Source of the DNA: an uncultured Nitrospiraceae bacterium
GTDB taxonomy: Bacteria > Hydrogenedentota > Hydrogenedentia > Hydrogenedentales > SLHB01
Length of the DNA stretch: 13,633 nucleotides
Assembly (NCBI GenBank): GCA_964425145.1
Contig: CAYRLQ010000098.1
Span: forward strand, 1 to 13,633
Reading direction: 5' to 3'
The position numbers and the translations under genes were made by a program. Shown here in pieces: positions 1-9,536 of the stretch (positions are counted from its first letter, which is position 1; each line of letters opens with the position of its first letter). The notes under the pieces are model-generated. The model searched no databases. It was not told where the DNA came from and saw only the letters and a program-made list of their open reading frames with translations.

Positions 1-232
1 GTCATTACGCCCATTTTACCACCAATCAACTTCGCACTATGCACTGTGCACCGTGCACCGTACACTGTCATTACGCCCATATTGCCACCAATCAACTTCG
101 CACTATGCACTGTGCACCGTACACTGTCATTACGCCCATTTTGTCACCAATCAACTTCGCACTATGCACTGTGCACCGTGCACTGTCATTACGCCCATTT
201 TACCACCAATCAACTTCGCACTATGCACTGTT
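1..232. repeat. Tandem direct repeat with a 59-bp unit, at least 4 copies (66, 59, 59 and 48 bp partial). The array begins at the window edge and probably continues upstream of it.
   Basis: Read directly. The unit gtcattacgcccattttaccaccaatcaacttcgcactatgcactgtgcaccgtacact recurs at 1, 67, 126 and 185 with a few substitutions and one 7-bp internal duplication (gcaccgt) in copy 1. There are no unique spacers between copies, so this is not a CRISPR array. Confidence 0.9.
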
Positions 233-932
233 AAACCCGGACCGCCAAAAAATGGAAATAAGGCAGGAACAGGAATTCCAGACCGTCAGTTAGTTCGACT
301 AACTCAGGTACGGCGAAGATCGAGTCGGGAAGGGCCGACTCCAAGGGCCGGGCCGGGTGAACGCCGCAGGCCACACGGAAGCCGGCGCGCATCAATTCCC
401 CGCCCAACTTGCGTCCGATTTCGATGTCGGCGCCATCGGCTGCAAGGGTCTCAGCAAGCCGTCCCATTTGTCCGTGTTCGGTCGGATGCTCCACCGCCCC
501 GCTGTAATCAGGCTCGGCGGCGGCGATAAGATGCCCGCCGGGAGCGAGAACGCGCCTGAGCTCTGCGAGAATCTCCTTCAAGGGGCGCGCCCAGAGGAAG
601 AACATCTGCGTGAAGACCAGATCGAATGTTGCGTTTTGAAAAGGCAGCGACTCGGCCTGGCCGGCAACGCGCCTCCCGGCGGCGAGACGCAGCGTGCCGA
701 TCTCAGAGTCCACACCTACCGCGAAGCCCCGCGCGCGGCGATCGAGTTCGCAAAGGGTCTCGCCAGTGCCCGCGCCAAGGTCCAGCACACGCCTCTTGGA
801 GGCGATGTTGACCTTGCGCAGCAGCCTGCTGCGCTCGCCGGCAAACCAGGCTGCCTGGCGCCGATAAATCTTTTGCAGGTCCGCGGGCTTCAAGGACTTC
901 CCCTCTAACAACCGGGAACTGACGACTAGCAA
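231..932 (-). CDS. Class I SAM-dependent methyltransferase (Methyltransf_11/25-like), last gene of the operon. TTG start as given in the ORF track; the exact start is uncertain.
   Basis: Translation contains the glycine-rich SAM-binding motif I VLDLGAGTGE, the acidic post-I residue in GVDSE, and LAPGGHLIAAAEP (motif III/post-II), a typical Rossmann-fold MTase layout. A 7-bp gap separates it from the upstream gene. Confidence 0.7.
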   Translation of the reverse strand: MLVVSSRLLEGKSLKPADLQKIYRRQAAWFAGERSRLLRKVNIASKRRVLDLGAGTGETLCELDRRARGFAVGVDSEIGTLRLAAGRRVAGQAESLPFQNATFDLVFTQMFFLWARPLKEILAELRRVLAPGGHLIAAAEPDYSGAVEHPTEHGQMGRLAETLAADGADIEIGRKLGGELMRAGFRVACGVHPARPLESALPDSIFAVPELVELTDGLEFLFLPYFHFLAVRV

Positions 933-939
933 CTATCAG

Positions 940-2775
940 CTACCGTCCGCCACCGGCGCAGGCGCAGGCGCAGGCGCAACCGGCGCAGGCACAGCCTCCT
1001 CCGCCTCCGCCTCCGCTGCCGCCGCCCTCGGACAGTTGTGAGAGAAAGTCGCTGGTGAACTGGTCGAAGCGGGAGAGGTCGAGGCCGCCTTTGGCGGTTC
1101 TGCCTAGCGAGTCGAGGCTGCCCGCCAAGCTGCTACACGTGTTCTCCAGGCGCCCGGCCAGCGAGTTCGCCACATCGCCGAAGGACGTAGCCGGTGTGCT
1201 TGGGCCACGGGATGCACCGGCTCGCCCGGGCGCGGCAGTGTAGGTTCCGTGGCCCCGGCCGTACCACCAGTGGGGATAATAGTGGTGGCCACCGCCGACA
1301 TCCCGGAGCTCGCGGTCCCAGTGGTCCTCCAGCATCAGCCAGCCCAGGTGCTTGTCCACGCGCTTGAAGCCGGCCTCATAGCCGGCCTCGGTCTTTACCT
1401 GCTTCCAGGCCCGGGCGACGATGCGCTTGTAATAGTCACGGGTCTGCTTCAGGTCGAATCCGGCCATGGCGCCCATGGTAAACTTGATGAGGCAATCGAA
1501 CGCATCGTCCAGGTTTATCTCCTCGACCGTTTTCCCTTGCTGGGCCTGGAATGCGTGTATAAAGCCCTTTTCATAGTGCCTGAGCTTCCCGCGCTTTCCG
1601 TCGGGCCGCGTCCAGATGTCCCCTGGCGATTCCTCGCCGGTCACCTCCAGCTTGAGCGGTTTGTCATAGCGGACGCGGACCACGCCCTTCTTGGCCAGGC
1701 CGAAGATGACCATGGTCAACACCTTGTGAAGCGGCACATCGAGGAGGATGGCCGCCTCGACGGAGGTGAGGCCGCGCTTTATTCCACCGCCCTCGATGCA
1801 GAGCTCTGCGGGGAAGTAGCGCTCCTTGCGCCGCGCGCGGAGGATGTACGCCAGTACGCCGAGTGCCACTACGATCGGATACAGGCATAGGTGAAATGTG
1901 GGGCTACGGTACATGCCATAACCCAGAATGACCGTCAGGACGATGAGCACGGACCAGCCGGTCCCGCGAGTGGTCTGGAAGAAGATGATGGCGAAAATCA
2001 CGATGAGCGCAATGCCGCTGATAACCTGGGCTTCCCGGCTGTCCTTGAACCACCTGTTGAAGAGGCCCCAGAGGGTATCCTTTCGCACCGCGCTGACGTA
2101 GCGCTTGGGAAAGGATACGCCGAACACGTGTTTCCCGGTCAGGCGCACGGTGCGCACCCAGGCCGCCGAGACAACCTCCTCGCCTTCCATGACACCCTTG
2201 GCGCTGAATTCCTGGCCCTTCTTATGCCAGAGGATGTCGTCTTTCACGGCTGCATAGTCGGCCTTGGGTATGGGCAGCTTGTAGCGCAGAATCAACTTGG
2301 TATTGCCCACAACGTACTGAGACCCAAACCAGGTGGGCGTAAAACGGAAGGATGCCAGTTCGGGGTTGGTCGTGTCCTGCCAGACCATGTTGCGCTCGCG
2401 CGCGGTAAATTCGAAGACACCGGTTTGGCCCGGGCGGACGGTCTGCGGTCCCAGATGAATCTCGTAGCCGCACCCCTTGGGTTTGAGGTAGGTGGAAATC
2501 TTGATGCTGCTACGCGGAAGCGGCTGGCCGTTGACGCTCGCGCTGCCCGGTGTGTGCGGCGCCATGTTGGGCATGCCGATGTCGACGATGTCGATGGGAT
2601 GGGCGCCGCGGTTGCAACTGAACGTCAGCTTGTAATAGACCAGGGCCGAGCCGTCCTCCTCGATGGTTACGGTGACCTGCGCCTCCGGGACGGAGAATTT
2701 GTATTCCGCGGCCAGCGCGGCACGGGCAGGCATAAGGCCCAGGACCAAAAGTATAACGGGCGCGAGTCCCTTCAT
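940..2775 (-). CDS. DUF2207-like integral membrane protein: signal peptide, large extracytoplasmic domain, 3 TM helices, then a cytoplasmic tail ending in poly-Gly followed by a (Cys-Ala)n repeat.
   Basis: N-terminal signal peptide MKGLAPVILLVLGLMPARAALA. Hydrophobic helices at AQVISGIALIVIFAIIFF, WSVLIVLTVILGYGMY and LYPIVVALGVLAYIL. C-terminus ...SEGGGSGGGGGGGCACAGCACACACAGGGR. The overall architecture and Gly-rich tail are as in Pfam DUF2207 proteins; this family call is from memory, not a search. Its ATG lies 9 nt after a GGAGGG that forms the last codons of the upstream rSAM gene. Confidence 0.5.
   Translation of the reverse strand: MKGLAPVILLVLGLMPARAALAAEYKFSVPEAQVTVTIEEDGSALVYYKLTFSCNRGAHPIDIVDIGMPNMAPHTPGSASVNGQPLPRSSIKISTYLKPKGCGYEIHLGPQTVRPGQTGVFEFTARERNMVWQDTTNPELASFRFTPTWFGSQYVVGNTKLILRYKLPIPKADYAAVKDDILWHKKGQEFSAKGVMEGEEVVSAAWVRTVRLTGKHVFGVSFPKRYVSAVRKDTLWGLFNRWFKDSREAQVISGIALIVIFAIIFFQTTRGTGWSVLIVLTVILGYGMYRSPTFHLCLYPIVVALGVLAYILRARRKERYFPAELCIEGGGIKRGLTSVEAAILLDVPLHKVLTMVIFGLAKKGVVRVRYDKPLKLEVTGEESPGDIWTRPDGKRGKLRHYEKGFIHAFQAQQGKTVEEINLDDAFDCLIKFTMGAMAGFDLKQTRDYYKRIVARAWKQVKTEAGYEAGFKRVDKHLGWLMLEDHWDRELRDVGGGHHYYPHWWYGRGHGTYTAAPGRAGASRGPSTPATSFGDVANSLAGRLENTCSSLAGSLDSLGRTAKGGLDLSRFDQFTSDFLSQLSEGGGSGGGGGGGCACAGCACACACAGGGR
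955..1014. repeat. Hexanucleotide microsatellites inside the 3' end of the DUF2207 gene. (GGCGCA)n at 955..993 encodes the Cys-Ala repeat. (CTCCGC)n at ~994..1014 encodes the poly-Gly run.
   Basis: Read directly: ggcgcaggcgcaggcgcaggcgcaaccggcgcaggcacagcc followed by tcctccgcctccgcctccgct. Confidence 0.8.
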
Positions 2776-2781
2776 GGTCTC

Positions 2782-4191
2782 TTAACCCTCCGATGGACTG
2801 TCAGTGCACAGGAAGCGATCGCCGTCACTGAGCGGACAGCCCGAGCCGCACACCTCGAAGTCCGGACACTCGCGGCACGCGTCAGGGGCTGCATCGCGGC
2901 TGCGAACCTCGCGAAAAAGCGGGCTGTTCCAAATCGACTTCCACTCATCGTCCAGAATGTGGCCGACGGGCTTGTAGTAGCTCTGACATGGGATAACCCG
3001 CCCGTCGGGCTCGATGCAGATGTTGTACTCCGCGGCTGTGCAGCGCTTGAAACCCAGGCCGAAGGTCGTCGGGTTCAGTGTACAGTAGTGAGTGGGGGTG
3101 TACCAGATGAAACGGAGGCCGAGCTTTTCTGCCGTGCCCGTGACCTCGCCGAGAATGGGCTCGAGGTCCGCTTCCTCGATGCCCAGCCCCGATTGGGGGG
3201 CCTTGCCCGTGTATATCAGGGAGTTCATGGCGAATTGCCGCACGCCCAACTCCTTCAGGAACTCGATGGTCTTATCGATCGCTTCAACATTCAGCCTGCA
3301 CAGCGTCGTGTTGGTCACCAGGTAGAGGTCGTCATCGATGGCGTTCTTGATGCCCTGCACCGTCTCCTCGAACGCGCCGGGGCAGCCGACCATCTGGTCG
3401 TGGACCTGCTTATCGTGGCTCTCGATAGTGATTTGCACGTGGTCGAGGCCGGCGGCGCAGAGCTTCCTGACGTACTCGCGGTCAGCGAGCTTCCTGCCAT
3501 TGGTGAGGAGTCCGGTGATAATGCCGATGTCCTCGGCCCGCTCAGTGAGTTCCACGAGATGGGGGCTCAGCGTGGCCTCGCCGCCCGTGAAGCACACGTG
3601 GGGTACGCCTATGCCCCACAGCTTTTCGAGAACATGCTTCCACTCTCTCACGCCGAGAGGCTTTACTTCGTCCGGCCGGCGGGCGACATAGCAGTGCAGG
3701 CACTTGTTGTTGCAGGCGTACGTCAGCGCCAGGTCGGCACGGTAGGGCGCCGAGACCTTCCGACCGAAAGGCGGCACAGTGGATACACCCAAGTTGGCGA
3801 CCGGACAGGCGTCCTCCGTGGTCTCCAACTGCTCTACGACCTTGAGGACCTTCCCGTAGTCGCGCGCCACCTCCTCGTGGGCGGCCCGGTAGACCTTACG
3901 CACCGCCGCCACCGCCTCATCCCTGCTCTTGCCGTCGAGGACCTGCTTCATGAGCGCCACGGCGGTTGCGTTGAGGTGCAGCACACCGGACGCGTTCACA
4001 GCCAGAAGGCCCGAGCCGTCCGGGTCCACGCGCAGGTGCAGGCGCAGATAGCGGTCGGCCAATTCGCGGCGGTAATGATAGATGCCGGGCTGCACAGCCT
4101 CGGCACCGGCGAAGAGCCGTTGGAACTTCTCACGCAGGCCTACCATTTGGGTGCCTCCTCGATCTGGTACTCGGATTGGCAGAAAGGGCAT
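2782..4191 (-). CDS. Radical SAM / SPASM-domain enzyme with a fused N-terminal PqqD-like RRE (RiPP recognition element); a peptide- or protein-modifying maturase. Alternative start at 4146 (MVGLREK...), which overlaps the upstream stop in ATGGTAG.
   Basis: CX3CX2C radical-SAM cluster motif (ALTYACNNKCLHCYV). C-terminal SPASM signature CRECPDFEVCGSGC (CX2CX5CX3C), preceded by CTAAEYNICIEPDGRVIPC and followed by FLC. The N-terminal ~120 aa (LRVDPDGSGLLAVNASGVLHLNATAVALMKQVLDGKSRDEAVAAV) match the PqqD/RRE fold pattern. The same domain order is found in AlbA/SuiB/CteB-type enzymes. Confidence 0.85.
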   Translation of the reverse strand: MPFLPIRVPDRGGTQMVGLREKFQRLFAGAEAVQPGIYHYRRELADRYLRLHLRVDPDGSGLLAVNASGVLHLNATAVALMKQVLDGKSRDEAVAAVRKVYRAAHEEVARDYGKVLKVVEQLETTEDACPVANLGVSTVPPFGRKVSAPYRADLALTYACNNKCLHCYVARRPDEVKPLGVREWKHVLEKLWGIGVPHVCFTGGEATLSPHLVELTERAEDIGIITGLLTNGRKLADREYVRKLCAAGLDHVQITIESHDKQVHDQMVGCPGAFEETVQGIKNAIDDDLYLVTNTTLCRLNVEAIDKTIEFLKELGVRQFAMNSLIYTGKAPQSGLGIEEADLEPILGEVTGTAEKLGLRFIWYTPTHYCTLNPTTFGLGFKRCTAAEYNICIEPDGRVIPCQSYYKPVGHILDDEWKSIWNSPLFREVRSRDAAPDACRECPDFEVCGSGCPLSDGDRFLCTDSPSEG

Positions 4192-4487
4192 TTCACGAAG
4201 ATCGCCCCGGCCCGAACCGAAACGCTCTTTGCGTCGAGGGCCGCGCCGCAGCTCTTACAGTTGAGTTCTTCGAGTTGCACGTCGCCGGACAGGTCGATCT
4301 TTCGGGTAACGGTGACCTTGGTCTCTGGCACTTTCATCCGCAGGAAGTAGATCACGGCTATCCCCGCACCGGTCAGGATGCCGCCAAGAATCCAGCGCGG
4401 CCAAATGCCGCTGCTGGCTGCTGCAACGCAGAACATGAGGCCTAATAGCACTAACAAGCCGGCGAAAAGATACCCGACAATCTTCAT
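4140..4487 (-). CDS. Small membrane protein with two N-terminal TM helices and a C-terminal zinc ribbon (CxxC-x18-CxxC).
   Basis: Hydrophobic segments IVGYLFAGLLVLLGLMFCVAAA and ILGGILTGAGIAVIYFL. Zinc ribbon CKSCGAALD...KCPFCQ. ATG at 4487, 17 nt after the stop of the SPFH gene. Its stop overlaps the 4146 start of the rSAM gene. Confidence 0.6.
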   Translation of the reverse strand: MKIVGYLFAGLLVLLGLMFCVAAASSGIWPRWILGGILTGAGIAVIYFLRMKVPETKVTVTRKIDLSGDVQLEELNCKSCGAALDAKSVSVRAGAIFVKCPFCQSEYQIEEAPKW

Positions 4488-4504
4488 CAGGACACCGCTC
4501 CGCG

Positions 4505-5698
4505 TTACGAATTACCAGGTTGGTCCGGCGCAGTTGGATGCACCGGCGGCGCCTCGAGGTTCTGGCCGCAGTCGGGGCAGAACTTGCTGCCCGCGGGGCT
4601 GATCGCCTGGCAGGCAGGGCATACCTCCGGCCCGATCTTAGCACCGCAACTCGAGCAGAACTTGCTATTGGGGTCGATGTCCGCCCCGCATTTGGGGCAC
4701 TTGGCCGTCGTCTCGCCGCTCAGGGGCTTGCCGCAGCCGGCGCAGAACCTGGCGGCGGGCGCATTCTGGTGCTTACAGGCCGGGCAAATCGAGACGCCCG
4801 TGGCCTGGGCCGCGCCGAGTTGCCCCCCCATCACGCCGCCAAGCATCCCGGGCATCATGTGGCCTACGCCGAAGCCGAGGCCCAGCCCCATGCCGGCGCC
4901 CATGATCTGCCCGGCGCCGCCCTCACTCTCGGCGGCCTTCTCGAGCGTGTCGAAGGTGCGTTTCATGCGGTACTTGTCCTCGCCCATGATGTCGATGTCC
5001 GCGCGCGCCGAGAGCGACTGTTTGAGCTTTACTACCGTCGCGTCATCTTCGGGCACGTCGATGGACATCAGCAGGAAGTCGGTGATCTCGAGGCCGTACT
5101 TGGTGAAATTCTCGGCCGTGCGGGCCTTACCGACGGCGGAGGCTTCCTCGAGGTAGGCGGCGATCTCGACGACTGACACCCGCTGCTTGATGATCACCTC
5201 GGCGATGTAATCCTTGAGCCGGGTGGTAATCGCTCCCTTCAGGTAGGTGCTGATGTCCTCGGTGGTGTAGAGTCGGTTTTGGCCGCAGATCACCGTTACG
5301 AAGGTCTTGGAATCGGCCACGCGCATGCCGAAGATGCCGAAGCAGCGCACAGGAACGACCACGTTGAACCTGGGGTCCATCACCTGGATGGGCGCCCGGG
5401 TGCCGAACTTGATGTCTGGAACAGTGCTCTTACTGACGAAGTAGACCTCGGCCGTAAAGGGCGTCTGGCCACCGAAAGGCAGAGCGATCAGTTCCCTAAG
5501 ACCCGGCAAATTGGCCGTGCTCAGCGTGTGCCGTCCAGGCCCGAACACGTCCAGCCCACGGCCCTCCCGGAAGATGACCGCATCCTGGGTTTCGTTCACG
5601 ATCACTTGGGTGGCGGTCGACAAGTTGTCCTGCGGGAACTTCCAGACCAGTTCGCGCGGGCTACCCTCGAACTTGACCCTGTCGATGAATGCGGCCAT
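4505..5698 (-). CDS. SPFH/band-7 (stomatin/prohibitin/flotillin) family protein with a Gly/Met-rich linker and three tandem C-terminal double zinc ribbons; COG4260 / Bacillus subtilis YdjI-like.
   Basis: N-terminal VWKFPQDNLSTATQVIVNETQDAVIFREGR and the following β-rich SPFH core resemble YdjI-type proteins (from memory). A low-complexity GAGMGLGLGFGVGHMMPGMLGGVMGG linker follows. Three repeats of CPxC-x10-12-FCxxCG follow: CPACK...FCAGCG, CPKCG...FCSSCG, CPACQ...FCPDCG. Strong SD AAGGAGGG lies 6 nt upstream of the ATG. Confidence 0.7.
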   Translation of the reverse strand: MAAFIDRVKFEGSPRELVWKFPQDNLSTATQVIVNETQDAVIFREGRGLDVFGPGRHTLSTANLPGLRELIALPFGGQTPFTAEVYFVSKSTVPDIKFGTRAPIQVMDPRFNVVVPVRCFGIFGMRVADSKTFVTVICGQNRLYTTEDISTYLKGAITTRLKDYIAEVIIKQRVSVVEIAAYLEEASAVGKARTAENFTKYGLEITDFLLMSIDVPEDDATVVKLKQSLSARADIDIMGEDKYRMKRTFDTLEKAAESEGGAGQIMGAGMGLGLGFGVGHMMPGMLGGVMGGQLGAAQATGVSICPACKHQNAPAARFCAGCGKPLSGETTAKCPKCGADIDPNSKFCSSCGAKIGPEVCPACQAISPAGSKFCPDCGQNLEAPPVHPTAPDQPGNS

Positions 5699-5735
5699 TT
5701 CCAGCCCTCCTTGTGTCGTTGCCAGTTGCTAGTGG

Positions 5736-6263
5736 TCAGGTAGCGGCAGGTGACGACCAGCCACCCGCAACCTCTCCTAGGCATTTCTTTCGTTGATCGA
5801 ACTGGCGCTCAAATGTCGCCAACGCGGCCTCGAGCCGGTCTGGACCCATCTCCAGCACTACATCGGCGGCGCCCTCGACCTCGGCAAGCTGTTCAAACAT
5901 GCAGCGGTCGTAGGCCAGAAGCCGCGCCAGGTCCTGCTGGCGTATTTTGACCTTGGCGGAAATCGCGCTGTGACCGTAATCGGCGAAGCGCACCTTGTTG
6001 GCGGCCTTGTCGACCAGGTTGAGCAAACGCTCGAGAGCGGCGAGCCCTGCGCCCGCGCGGACATCTTCGCCCGCCGCCTTGATGGCCTTGTTCACCGGTG
6101 TTTTGGCCTCAGACAGCCGCCGGGCGATCTCATCGCGAATCATCTTATCAGCTTCCCAGATGGTGGTATTCTCGAGATATCCCCGGAACACAGGGACCTG
6201 TGCCATTTGCTCGGCGAGCCATCCCCGGTCGGCTTTCATCCGCTGCAGAAGCTTGTCTTCCAT
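5736..6263 (-). CDS. Hypothetical all-alpha-helical cytoplasmic protein (175 aa), first gene of the operon. Start moved to the internal ATG at 6263, which is preceded by GGGAGGAGG.
   Basis: The ORF track gives 5736..6323, but the ATG at 6263 (MEDKLLQRMK...) has a near-perfect Shine-Dalgarno GGAGGAGG 6 nt upstream. No recognised domain; predicted helical and charged. It lacks the PspA/IM30 N-terminal signature. Confidence 0.5.
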   Translation of the reverse strand: MEDKLLQRMKADRGWLAEQMAQVPVFRGYLENTTIWEADKMIRDEIARRLSEAKTPVNKAIKAAGEDVRAGAGLAALERLLNLVDKAANKVRFADYGHSAISAKVKIRQQDLARLLAYDRCMFEQLAEVEGAADVVLEMGPDRLEAALATFERQFDQRKKCLGEVAGGWSSPAAT

Positions 6264-6399
6264 TTCAGACCTCCTCCCGGAATGGGCCGGCGCCTCCGGT
6301 TGCGAAACGACGAGCACGAGCACGTATGGATTGACACGTCTAGTGTCCCCGGCACTCGATTACTCCACAAGCACCCCGTCGCGCCATGGAACCGATCCC

Positions 6400-6445
6400 T
6401 CATAATTTTAACCTATTTGCAGACAAATAACTATAACCCTCGCTT
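6400..6445 (-). promoter_or_regulatory. Candidate sigma70-like promoter region for the six-gene operon, in an AT-rich island between the murA stop and the operon's first gene.
   Basis: Minus strand reads ...agggttatagttatttgtctgcaaataggttaaaattatgagg...; a TAAAAT -10-like hexamer with an upstream T-rich region, but no clean TTGACA at ideal spacing. The only AT-rich patch in the 208-bp leader. Confidence 0.25.
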
Positions 6446-6471
6446 TGTGAAATATCCCTGGGACAAGCAAG

Positions 6472-8002: not shown

Positions 8003-8617
8003 TCAGGCGCCGCCTGCTGAGTCCTCGGGCTGCTCGGCGGGTGTAGGTTGTTGTTCAGCCGGGACCGGCTCGGGCGCCACGGTGACGGTCACCGTGCCAG
8101 GCGGCTCGGTGGTTTCCCCAGGTGCGGCCCCTTCGGTGGGAGGCACTTCCGGCGGTACGGTAACGGTCACTTCGCCGGCCTGCTCAGCGGCTCCCTCAGG
8201 TGGCGGGGGCACCGCTTTTTCCCCCGGGACAGCCTCGGAACCCTCGACGGCCGTGCCGAGGTCATCGAGCATGTCGTCGAGGCTTTCTCCTAATACGCCC
8301 ATCTCTCCCAGGACATCGGCCTCTTCGACCTTGTCCGGGGCGATGCCCTTGCCAAGGCGCCCCGATACCAGGGACATGGCCAAGGCGAGGATCATGAACA
8401 CGGCGGCCATGACGTGGGTCAGCCGAACGGGCAGACTCTGGCTTGCCCGGGGACCGAACACCGTGTCCGAGCCGGGGCCGATGCCAAATGCGCCGGCGAA
8501 GCCGGTCCCTTTGCCCTTTTGCAACAGGACAATCACGATGAGGCCGGCGCAACTGGGCACGTAGAGGATCAACATCAGCCACCACAACGTTTCCCAACGC
8601 CAGATGAATTCCCACAT
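8003..8617 (-). CDS. secG: Preprotein translocase subunit SecG with an unusually long (~110 aa) Pro/Thr/Glu/Val-rich low-complexity C-terminal extension.
   Basis: SecG signature LLQKGKGTGFAGAFGIGPGSDTVFGPRASQ....THVMAAVFMILALAMSLV, with two TM helices. Position immediately after tpiA (27-bp gap) matches the conserved tpiA-secG synteny. SD AAGGAAAA lies upstream of the ATG at 8617. Confidence 0.75.
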   Translation of the reverse strand: MWEFIWRWETLWWLMLILYVPSCAGLIVIVLLQKGKGTGFAGAFGIGPGSDTVFGPRASQSLPVRLTHVMAAVFMILALAMSLVSGRLGKGIAPDKVEEADVLGEMGVLGESLDDMLDDLGTAVEGSEAVPGEKAVPPPPEGAAEQAGEVTVTVPPEVPPTEGAAPGETTEPPGTVTVTVAPEPVPAEQQPTPAEQPEDSAGGA

Positions 8618-8644: not shown

Positions 8645-9400
8645 CTAAACCGCCGCCTTGACGATGGCGGCGAAACTATCGGCCTTGAGCGAGGCGCCCC
8701 CGACCAGCGCGCCGTCCACATCGGGTTTGGCCATCAACTCGGCCGCGTTATCCGGTTTAACGCTGCCGCCGTATTGAATTCGGACTTGCTCCGCAACGGC
8801 TTCCCCGAACTCCTCGGCCACAAGCCCCCGCACAAACGCGTGGGCCTCCTCGGCCTGCTCCGGGGTTGCAGTAACACCAGTGCCGATGGCCCAGACGGGT
8901 TCATATGCGATGGCGAGCTTGTCGAAATCGGTTCCAGCCAGGTTGACGAGGCCATCAGCGACTTGGCGCCTCAACACGTCGTTCATCCTGCCGCCTTCAC
9001 GCTCCTCAAGGCTCTCGCCGACGCAGAACATAACCTTCAACCCAGCAGCCAGGGCGAACTTAACCTTCTCGTTCAAGAAGGCGTCGGATTCCTTGAAATA
9101 CTGGCGACGTTCGCTATGGCCGACAATGGTCCACGTGCATCCCACGTCCAGCAGCATCTGCGGTGAAATTTCACCCGTATAGGCGCCGCTTTCCTTGGTG
9201 TAACAGTTCTGGCCGCCCATCTCGACGTTTGACCCCCTGAGGGCTTCACCGACGGCATACAGCGCCGCAAAAGTCGGGCAAACCACCACATCAACGGTCG
9301 AGACGTCCCGAGCGAGCGGCTTGATGGCATTGACCAGGCCGACGGCGTCGCCGACCCGCAGATTCATCTTCCAATTTCCAGCGACAAGCGGTTTTCTCAC
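8645..9400 (-). CDS. tpiA: Triosephosphate isomerase. Start moved to the GTG at 9400; the ORF-track start at 9529 is an upstream in-frame extension.
   Basis: The conserved TIM N-terminus RKPLVAGNWKMN begins directly after GTG (9400..9398), which is preceded by GAAGGG. Catalytic and loop motifs present: NAIKPL..., IVGHSERR, VIACVGE-like FCVGESLEERE, IAYEPVWAIGTG, and the QYGGSV phosphate-binding loop. Confidence 0.9.
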   Translation of the reverse strand: MRKPLVAGNWKMNLRVGDAVGLVNAIKPLARDVSTVDVVVCPTFAALYAVGEALRGSNVEMGGQNCYTKESGAYTGEISPQMLLDVGCTWTIVGHSERRQYFKESDAFLNEKVKFALAAGLKVMFCVGESLEEREGGRMNDVLRRQVADGLVNLAGTDFDKLAIAYEPVWAIGTGVTATPEQAEEAHAFVRGLVAEEFGEAVAEQVRIQYGGSVKPDNAAELMAKPDVDGALVGGASLKADSFAAIVKAAV

Positions 9401-9536
9401 GGCAATACCCTTCGCTAAACAGCTACGACAGCCCTGCAAATCCTGCCCGAATCGTAGCACAACCTCTCGGAACAACGCAAGATGAGTTGCTGGCAGTCCA
9501 CTGCTGGTGGCCGGTTTTTCAACCGGCAACTATTAA

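Follow-up and report, generated by a model that had tools for sequence, protein, structure and literature searches.

The window analysed here is a whole stretch of 13,633 nucleotides (nt) from an uncultured bacterium (GenBank assembly GCA_964425145.1, contig CAYRLQ010000098.1; deposited as Nitrospiraceae, GTDB phylum Hydrogenedentota). Its minus strand carries a compact unit of six genes, which comparative analysis resolved into two modules and not one: a four-gene cassette, encoding a zinc-ribbon transmembrane (TM) protein (ZnR-TM), a radical S-adenosylmethionine (rSAM)/SPASM enzyme, a large membrane protein and a methyltransferase, and a separate pair formed by ORF6 and an SPFH gene. The membrane protein ends in a Cys-Ala tail, (Cys-Ala)n-Gly-(Cys-Ala)n-GGGR, and it is probable, in our judgement, that the rSAM enzyme modifies this tail post-translationally on the cytoplasmic side. 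The sequence-only reading had cast an operon-encoded tail in the role of a built-in 'peptide' for an rSAM enzyme fused to a RiPP recognition element (RRE; RiPP, ribosomally synthesized and post-translationally modified peptide). This proposal gains support from the co-occurrence of tail and enzyme in both search directions, from tail types that covary with the rSAM tree and from the conservation of the tail across two domains of life; a methyltransferase gene is linked as well. The cassette features, in window coordinates, are the following:

4140..4487, minus strand: ZnR-TM, 115 amino acids (aa), two TM helices and a zinc ribbon (CxxC...CPxC)
2782..4146, minus strand: rSAM/SPASM enzyme, 454 aa, with an N-terminal PqqD-like RRE; proposed tail maturase
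3841..4008, minus strand: PqqD-like RRE of the rSAM enzyme, from the Pfam PqqD match
940..2775, minus strand: DUF2207-like membrane protein, 611 aa
1027..1083, minus strand: leader-like motif and Gly-rich spacer, 5' of the tail, from conserved alignment columns
943..993, minus strand: Cys-Ala C-terminal tail, CACAGCACACACAGGGR, read directly from the sequence
231..932, minus strand: class I SAM-dependent methyltransferase (Pfam Methyltransf_11/25), last gene of the cassette

The Cys-Ala Tail of the Membrane Protein

All full-length homologues of the membrane protein end in the same motif, (CA)nG(CA)nGGGR. These last 17–19 residues are near-invariant, whereas the rest of the protein is 25–35% identical across lineages. 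Conservation of this strength is seldom encountered and implies a chemically demanding, sequence-specific product. Among the homologues from genome loci, the form CACACACAGCACACAGGGR is found in most; the clade of the window carries CACACAGCACACACAGGGR or, as in the window itself, a version shorter by one Cys-Ala, and Bathyarchaeia and one Nitrospirales genome carry C[VA]CACAxCACACACVSCACACA[HG]GGAR. The 19-aa tail is identical in 48 of the 65 loci with a membrane protein, and the same 17–19 residues are common to Chloroflexota, Hydrogenedentota, Planctomycetota, Nitrospirales and Bathyarchaeia. In bacteria and archaea alike, no other feature of the family is as strongly conserved.

The DNA coding for identical 19-aa tails shows a mean identity of 81%, with a minimum of 70%. 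Synonymous codons vary freely, including both TGC and TGT, the four GCN and the four GGN codons. Such synonymous variation under a fixed peptide indicates that the peptide is what selection acts upon. On these grounds, together with the lack of any Rfam or tRNA match in the window, conservation at the level of RNA or DNA was rejected as an explanation.

The family is large. A profile search of 1.84 billion representatives recovered 397 members at E ≤ 1e-30, corresponding to at least 397 clusters at 50% identity, and its proteins measure 520–650 aa. A check of 144 newly listed top representatives found the tail in 120, and most of the remaining 24 appear truncated.

Upstream of the tail, the alignments contain a second conserved motif, DLSxFDxFTxxxL (DLSxFDxFT in the window clade and FTxxVTxxTNP in Chloroflexota), followed by a Gly/Ser spacer. 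This motif would correspond to a leader and is a candidate docking site for the RRE, so that the C-terminal region takes on a leader/core-like layout. The tail itself is predicted to be disordered and would for that reason be accessible.

One locus from the metagenome scan described below (L170:1715-1948) contains a 77-aa ORF (open reading frame) that combines a leader-like motif, FTSGVTNVTNPPPPP, with a Gly-rich spacer and the tail CACACACACAGCACACAGGGR and lacks the membrane-protein body. It overlaps a long ORF on the opposite strand, and the contig stops 56 nt further downstream. This ORF may be either a precursor in its own right or what is left of a larger gene, and it is the sole possible stand-alone tail peptide that surfaced in the DNA scan, no dedicated search having been made.

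Linkage of the Tail to the Radical SAM Enzyme

The association was analysed from both ends. A sample of 80 genome loci was chosen through the rSAM enzyme and then searched with the six window proteins. In the opposite direction, metagenome contigs were scanned with a degenerate DNA pattern for the tail alone, which yielded at least 120 loci; all counts given for this tail-first scan are among the loci listed. The ORFs found in this way were checked with a hidden Markov model (HMM) of the family from which the last 30 residues had been removed.

Starting from the enzyme, a homologue of the 611-aa membrane protein was present in 65 of the 80 loci, a ZnR-TM match in 54 and a methyltransferase match in most of them. 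Starting from the tail, ORFs ending ...GGGR-stop were found in 116 of the 120 listed loci, and the tail-less HMM matched 112 of these 116 ORFs; the four without a match were three short edge fragments and the 77-aa ORF of L170. The rSAM gene lay on the same, often short, contig in 103 of the 116 loci, with ZnR-TM in 71 of them and the methyltransferase in 40. The adjacency of enzyme and substrate gene expected of RRE-containing rSAM maturases is therefore seen both rSAM-first (65/80) and tail-first (103/116).

The cassette recurs in Hydrogenedentota, Brocadiia/Planctomycetota, Elusimicrobiota, many Anaerolineae/Chloroflexota, Coatesbacteria, Zixibacteria, Nitrospirales and Bathyarchaeia. The 80 rSAM loci also include deltaproteobacteria and Actinomycetota, and span at least eight bacterial phyla plus Bathyarchaeia. 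In the window clade the gene order is ZnR-TM, rSAM, membrane protein and methyltransferase, while in Chloroflexota it is ZnR-TM, membrane protein, rSAM and methyltransferase, some lineages having one additional gene between the last two. As the order varies between clades, the linkage has been kept through rearrangement.

The three tail types sit in separate, monophyletic rSAM clades of a neighbour-joining tree. The Nitrospirales locus L066 has a tail of the archaeal type, and its rSAM enzyme is 64–68% identical to those of Bathyarchaeia and at most 53% identical to all others, from which it follows that the cassette genes travelled together. When all ORFs of the 80 loci were clustered, no further conserved neighbour emerged, and hence no protease or transporter family.

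Two loci carry two tandem tail-bearing paralogues beside a single rSAM gene (L073, 6303-8021 and 7961-9913; L178, 700-2364 and 2411-4102), and in both the two paralogues have an intact tail.

The Radical SAM/SPASM Enzyme

The rSAM enzyme matches the Pfam families Radical_SAM (8.5e-24), SPASM (2.4e-12) and PqqD (6.5e-6). The last of these, which identifies the RRE, scores 26.8 bits against a Pfam cut-off of 23.4 and covers residues 62-117 of the 469-aa ORF; the same family (PF05402) is precomputed on many rSAM homologues. An alignment of 16 phylum-spanning homologues shows a conserved RRE motif, RLHLR..DG.GLL.VNAS..LHLN, invariant CxxxCxxC cysteines (C145/C149/C152) and a SPASM set with the spacing Cx2Cx5Cx3C, in which C355, C369, C377, C387, C424, C427, C433, C437 and C447 are invariant. 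An extra invariant cysteine, C114 (ED.CP motif), is located in the linker between the RRE and the core, outside the known cluster motifs.

The enzyme belongs to a very uniform family of more than 4000 homologues, with a length of about 454 aa and about 50% identity across phyla, and a genome scan confirmed relatives in at least 589 stretches. The closest solved structures by sequence are SkfB (8.6e-28), followed by PqqE, BlsE and SuiB. The presence of an RRE, an intact CxxxCxxC motif and a full SPASM set, with SkfB, PqqE and SuiB as nearest structures, marks this as an rSAM enzyme of the peptide-modifying type. It reaches none of the NCBIfam equivalog cut-offs: the best match is AhbD, with 122 bits against 500, and the scores for PqqE (119.5 against 381), AlbA (77 against 850) and SkfB (86 against 300) are likewise too low. 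The Chloroflexota and archaeal orthologues also fall below every NCBIfam cut-off. The RRE-fused rSAM/SPASM architecture that had been read from the letters alone is thus supported by Pfam, and the profile search assigned the enzyme to no known cofactor-maturation family.

In several cassettes of the Anaerolineae type, a second rSAM paralogue of about 385 aa is encoded between the rSAM and methyltransferase genes (L071:11362-12516, L070:11391-12557, L038:11362-12513 and L032:7563-8723); the window has none. This paralogue keeps the RRE-like N-domain and has lost the CxxxCxxC and SPASM cysteines. It is probably a catalytically inactive partner that might serve as scaffold or chaperone.

The Membrane Protein and Its Relationship to DUF2207

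In an AlphaFold2 model with a mean pLDDT of 80, the 611-aa protein begins with a signal peptide and a beta-sandwich ectodomain, continues with three TM helices and a cytoplasmic helical/winged-helix-like domain, and ends in a disordered C-terminal region that includes the tail. Most other clades have one TM helix, as opposed to three in the window protein. Since a signal peptide is followed by an odd TM count in either case, the tail would lie in the cytoplasm, within reach of the rSAM enzyme.

The protein has no Pfam match at E ≤ 0.01 and none in NCBIfam, and the profile of the family found no match among PDB chains. A direct assignment of the window protein to DUF2207 was therefore rejected in favour of remote homology. 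Among 25 family members, weak DUF2207 matches in Pfam were obtained for PF09972, the N-terminal domain, in five (best 7.2e-5) and for PF20990, the C-terminal domain, in three. Furthermore, an hhalign comparison of the family profile with the canonical DUF2207 protein of locus L084 gave a probability of 86.7% and an E-value of about 4.3e-6 over 228 collinear columns. The family thus appears to be a specialised branch of the DUF2207 superfamily in which a Cys-Ala motif follows the Gly-rich tail, the relationship being remote. Of the domain calls made from the letters alone, those for SPFH and zinc ribbon, rSAM/SPASM/RRE and methyltransferase were reproduced by Pfam, and the one that named a DUF2207 protein with a Cys-Ala tail was sustained for the tail and, at the level of hhalign, for kinship, and not for a Pfam DUF2207 match.

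The likeness to DUF2207 (YciQ-like) proteins extends to the layout, with signal peptide, beta-rich ectodomain, TM segment(s), cytoplasmic domain and Gly-rich tail in the same order. However, canonical DUF2207 proteins have neither the Cys-Ala motif nor rSAM and methyltransferase partners; that of L084 ends in a plain Gly-rich tail, GGGSRGGGGSGGGSRGFG. The one functional study on DUF2207 that was found describes a stress and biofilm phenotype in S. mutans (PMC10457818).

Proposed Maturation of the Tail

The following sequence of events is proposed. The membrane protein would insert such that the ectodomain faces outward and the C-terminal domain, together with the tail, stays in the cytoplasm, as its signal peptide and odd TM count suggest. 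The PqqD-like RRE would dock on the conserved motif located 25–30 residues upstream of the tail, and the rSAM/SPASM core would then abstract hydrogen atoms and cross-link the alternating Cys and Ala residues. By analogy with the SkfB- and AlbA-type relatives, the likeliest products would be sactionine- or ranthionine-type thioethers from Cys sulphur to carbon, zipping the two (CA)n arms together about the Gly in the middle. The class I methyltransferase might add a methyl group to the modified tail or to the terminus. The product would remain attached to the protein, because no conserved protease or exporter is encoded nearby in the 80 loci.

Several points weigh against this proposal. The type of modification is suggested by family resemblance only, and typical sactipeptide precursors separate the donor Cys residues from the acceptors, whereas here each arm contains both. 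The role of the methyltransferase is likewise putative: the window protein matches Pfam Methyltransf_11 (1.8e-15), and its best NCBIfam match, the DVU_1556 family, scores 68 bits, far below the cut-off of 155. Its gene is adjacent to or near the rSAM gene in most loci, including those without the membrane protein, and its relatives measure 219–220 aa. Linkage between enzyme and tail also has exceptions. About 10 of the 80 rSAM loci have long flanks and no membrane protein; most of them belong to one rSAM–methyltransferase subclade, which instead adjoins 246-aa TM proteins ending in EVTVQVQVTYDIR. Conversely, at least five tail-bearing loci among those listed have long flanks without an rSAM gene. 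Given exceptions in both directions, the rSAM–tail linkage is strong and not absolute.

The subclade just mentioned is monophyletic, and its loci encode one to three tandem membrane-anchored proteins of about 246 aa ending in ...GQLEVTVQVQVTYDI[R/G], a C-terminus of alternating residues. They are encoded upstream of the rSAM gene in L024 (1871-2611, 3147-3890 and 4115-5197), L022, L027, L029 and L049, and may represent an alternative substrate class.

The seven cysteines of the tail could also simply bind metal, which would be compatible with modification. In the stricter form of this idea, the tail is an unmodified metal- or Fe-S-binding (metallothionein-like CxC) motif or a redox sensor, and the rSAM enzyme acts on the C-terminal end of ZnR-TM or on a small molecule. 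We regard this as improbable. It draws on the CxC spacing of the seven Cys residues, which resembles metallothionein motifs, on the tail genes without a nearby rSAM gene and the rSAM genes without a nearby tail gene, and on a sub-threshold NCBIfam resemblance to the Lys-Trp cross-linking WgkB family. It also draws on ZnR-TM, which has no NCBIfam match and whose C-terminus, EEPKW, was called invariant in an alignment of 54 homologues. However, metal-binding motifs rarely need the invariance of every Ala and of the GGGR end, the tail type follows the rSAM clade, and the RRE implies a peptide substrate.

The EEPKW end could be a second or alternative substrate, a further point against the tail as the only target. 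As the main substrate, through a Lys-Trp link, ZnR-TM was rejected: the Lys is replaced in the archaeal forms (EEPLW or EEPTW), and its gene is less tightly linked to the rSAM gene than that of the membrane protein (54 vs 65 of 80), being absent from several complete loci (L005, L007, L015, L017 and L020).

A different function for the tail would be that of a C-terminal membrane anchor or sorting signal, similar to GlyGly-CTERM or PEP-CTERM and processed by dedicated machinery. In favour of this, a moderately hydrophobic Cys/Ala stretch comes after a Gly-rich spacer, and a single basic residue closes the C-terminus, a layout loosely reminiscent of tripartite sorting signals. However, no conserved sortase, rhombosortase or exosortase-like gene was found nearby in the 80 loci; the conserved partner is an RRE-containing rSAM enzyme. 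Moreover, the TM segments of sorting signals vary whereas this tail is invariant, and the stretch is short (15–17 residues), predicted to be disordered and, by topology, on the cytoplasmic side. A sorting signal is accordingly considered highly improbable.

With modification by the rSAM enzyme as the preferred explanation, a more specific outcome can tentatively be put forward. Its dedicated rSAM enzyme and the methyltransferase may turn the tail into a new protein-derived structure, such as a 'zipper' with multiple thioether bridges or a cofactor-like metal/redox centre. This structure would stay covalently bound to the DUF2207-like protein, and an envelope-sensing or envelope-maintenance complex common to anaerobic bacteria and archaea would require it. 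This extended view is possible and somewhat doubtful.

The SPFH/ORF6 Pair

The two remaining genes of the unit precede the cassette:

5736..6263, minus strand: ORF6, 175 aa, all-helical; first gene of the unit, paired with the SPFH gene
4505..5698, minus strand: SPFH protein with zinc ribbons, 397 aa, soluble, of the YdjI/SamI type

The SPFH protein matches Band_7_1 (1.8e-45, residues 18-223) and DZR (3.5e-23), with DZR/Zn_ribbon at residues 305-382. It is organized as a Band_7_1 domain, a Gly/Met-rich linker and zinc ribbons (DZR in two stretches), and has no TM segment. ORF6 has about 19 close homologues, and a fold search with it returned generic helical bundles only, which are not demonstrably PspA-like.

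The sequence-only reading had taken all six genes for one conserved functional system, and this did not hold. Sensitive profiles, built from six SPFH and five ORF6 sequences, found the pair in 1 of the 80 genome loci (L066) and in 0 of the 120 listed tail-carrying metagenome loci, and other Hydrogenedentota cassettes (L001-L003 and L010) lack it. As regards the co-occurrence proposed as a check, homologues of the rSAM gene are strongly associated with the DUF2207-like protein and with the methyltransferase, and not with SPFH. Only the closest relatives, with rSAM enzymes 75–77% identical to that of the window, have all six genes in this order, and their flanking genes differ. In L066, an ORF6-like/SPFH pair is convergent to the cassette, on the opposite strand. 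The L085 pair precedes a protein kinase gene, and its 7.7-kb contig carries none of the cassette genes. ORF6 and SPFH are therefore a separate two-gene pair, a lineage-specific add-on placed before the cassette, and the cassette can do without SPFH in nearly all lineages, since almost every cassette locus lacks it. By the same comparison, ZnR-TM belongs with the rSAM cassette and not with SPFH.

A version of the single-system idea can still be formulated, in which all six genes are obligate, SPFH and ORF6 are integral parts and the rSAM enzyme modifies a component of the SPFH membrane scaffold. The genes are tightly packed, terminator-like sites inside the unit are not above chance (6 found vs 6.9 expected), the closest relatives preserve the six genes among different flanks, and the pair independently abuts a cassette in L066. 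In addition, a row of genes in L084 (5513-9678) encodes a canonical DUF2207 protein, a 181-aa protein, an ORF6-like protein and a Band_7_1 SPFH protein. The 181-aa protein has two TM helices, a winged-helix-like region and a zinc ribbon, and resembles ZnR-TM, so that the row contains four component types of the window without the rSAM enzyme, the methyltransferase or the Cys-Ala tail. Against an obligate system stand the absence of the pair from nearly all cassettes, its orientation in L066 and its occurrence away from the cassette in L085, and we therefore regard such a system as unlikely. In the subclade of the window, the ORF6/SPFH pair is probably co-transcribed with the cassette, and a loose, recurrent association of this SPFH type with DUF2207/ZnR-TM membrane pairs is plausible.

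The proposed YdjI-type SPFH protein without PspA agrees with the profile results. The layout is that of YdjI/SamI from the PspA-YdjGHI (SamGHI) system, with a Band_7_1 domain, a low-complexity linker and C-terminal zinc fingers (PMC8581546). Moreover, the unit that encodes the SPFH protein also encodes a zinc-ribbon TM protein and another membrane protein, comparable to YdjI with YdjG and YdjH (PMC8581546; PMC9239133). In B. subtilis, the zinc-ribbon TM protein YdjG and the membrane protein YdjH bring soluble YdjI/SamI to the membrane (PMC8581546, PMC9239133, bioRxiv 10.64898/2026.02.06.704340). By analogy, the SPFH protein of the window may dock on the ZnR-TM/DUF2207-like membrane pair. The systems differ in that PspA is missing here, none of the six proteins matching PspA_IM30, and in that the zinc-ribbon TM protein is tied to the rSAM cassette and not to SPFH.

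Comparison with Known Systems

The proposed reaction is of a known kind, the RRE-dependent rSAM/SPASM maturation of an adjacent Cys-rich sequence. With sactisynthases (AlbA, SkfB, StsB) and ranthipeptide synthases (CteB, PapB), the enzyme shares the RRE, the CxxxCxxC core, the cysteines of the SPASM auxiliary clusters, a size of about 450 aa and a Cys-rich substrate gene next to that of the enzyme. In contrast to those systems, the putative substrate is the tail of an integral membrane protein of about 600 aa and not a small exported peptide, no conserved protease or transporter accompanies it in the 80 loci, and each arm alternates donor Cys with potential acceptor Ala. The classical features of a RiPP, a short precursor with a cleaved leader and a protease or exporter, are not found here: the precursor is a membrane protein of 520–650 aa, the 77-aa ORF of L170 being a possible exception.

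A second comparison is with anSME and with QhpD, which acts on QhpC. In these cases a SPASM enzyme works on a Cys-containing segment of a protein and the modification is kept, a concept that would also apply to the tail. anSME matches the SPASM region weakly (4.5e-6). However, the rSAM cores are unrelated beyond the superfamily, and the target here is a seven-Cys repeat hosted by a membrane protein; anSME, in turn, lacks an RRE and produces formylglycine from one Cys or Ser residue.

Pfam, NCBIfam (June 2026) and PADLOC contain no model for the membrane protein, ZnR-TM or this rSAM subfamily, and the names found in databases are only 'hypothetical protein' or 'radical SAM protein'. Membership in anti-phage defence was considered and rejected, as PADLOC yields only generic similarities to rSAM (viperin) and methyltransferase proteins. 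Nothing relevant emerged from literature searches on the motif itself, on radical SAM in connection with Cys-Ala or with DUF2207, or on RREs in connection with membrane proteins; the matches to the motif string were PCR primers. The earlier statement that no described system has this composition stands, in that no curated family describes the combination. The new elements are the tail of a large membrane protein as the target, the invariant Cys-Ala repeat and the fixed partnership with ZnR-TM and the methyltransferase.

To our knowledge, RRE-containing rSAM/SPASM enzymes are known almost only for small secreted peptides or peptide-derived cofactors. The cassette appears to direct this machinery at a cytoplasmic tail that belongs to a large integral membrane protein, and nothing indicates release of the tail. 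If this is correct, RiPP chemistry would serve for the in-cis maturation of a membrane protein, and the cassette would give a first access to the function of the large DUF2207 superfamily, including its Gly-rich tails. A new cross-link or a cofactor bound to the protein could come to light through the chemistry, along with a first biochemical role for the superfamily. Uncultured anaerobes carry the cassette widely, and all members of the membrane-protein family are annotated as 'hypothetical'; the loci labelled Anaerolinea, Leptolinea and Brevefilum all derive from metagenome-assembled genomes. Finally, the occasional joining of a YdjI-like SPFH gene and the DUF2207/zinc-ribbon/SPFH row of L084 hint at a link with membrane-stress scaffolds.

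Organization of the Unit and Neighbouring Features

The six co-directional, packed ORFs run from 6263 to 231 on the minus strand, as had been described, and the five upstream products (175, 397, 115, 454 and 611 aa) are the same in gene calls made independently on public contigs of identical sequence. The junctions likewise agree with the earlier description. The SPFH and ZnR-TM genes are separated by 17 nt; the ATG of the rSAM gene, at 4146, overlaps the stop of ZnR-TM in ATGGTAG and has GAGGAGG upstream; the rSAM stop is followed by a 6-nt gap, with GGAGGG embedded in the last rSAM codons; and a 7-nt gap precedes the TTG start of the methyltransferase. ORF6 and SPFH are spaced by 37 nt, and AAGGAGG precedes the SPFH start. 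A longer version of ORF6, starting with GTG at 6323, is probably an over-extension. The start codon of the methyltransferase is uncertain, being either the TTG at 932 or a site about 13 codons downstream. Upstream of the unit lies murA, with a 208-nt spacer between them.

Directly after the methyltransferase stop begins a tandem repeat that runs off the start of the window (1-245). It comprises four copies of 59–66 nt, 89–95% identical to the first copy, with no Rfam match and no inverted repeat. A CRISPR array was ruled out by the absence of unique spacers.

Two further ORFs on the minus strand deserve mention. At 8003-8617, a SecG homologue of 204 aa has its SecG domain confined to residues 15-83, followed by a long Pro/Glu/Ala-rich extension. 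At 8645-9529 lies a TpiA ORF whose TIM domain begins at residue 47, so that its true start is probably downstream of the listed TTG.

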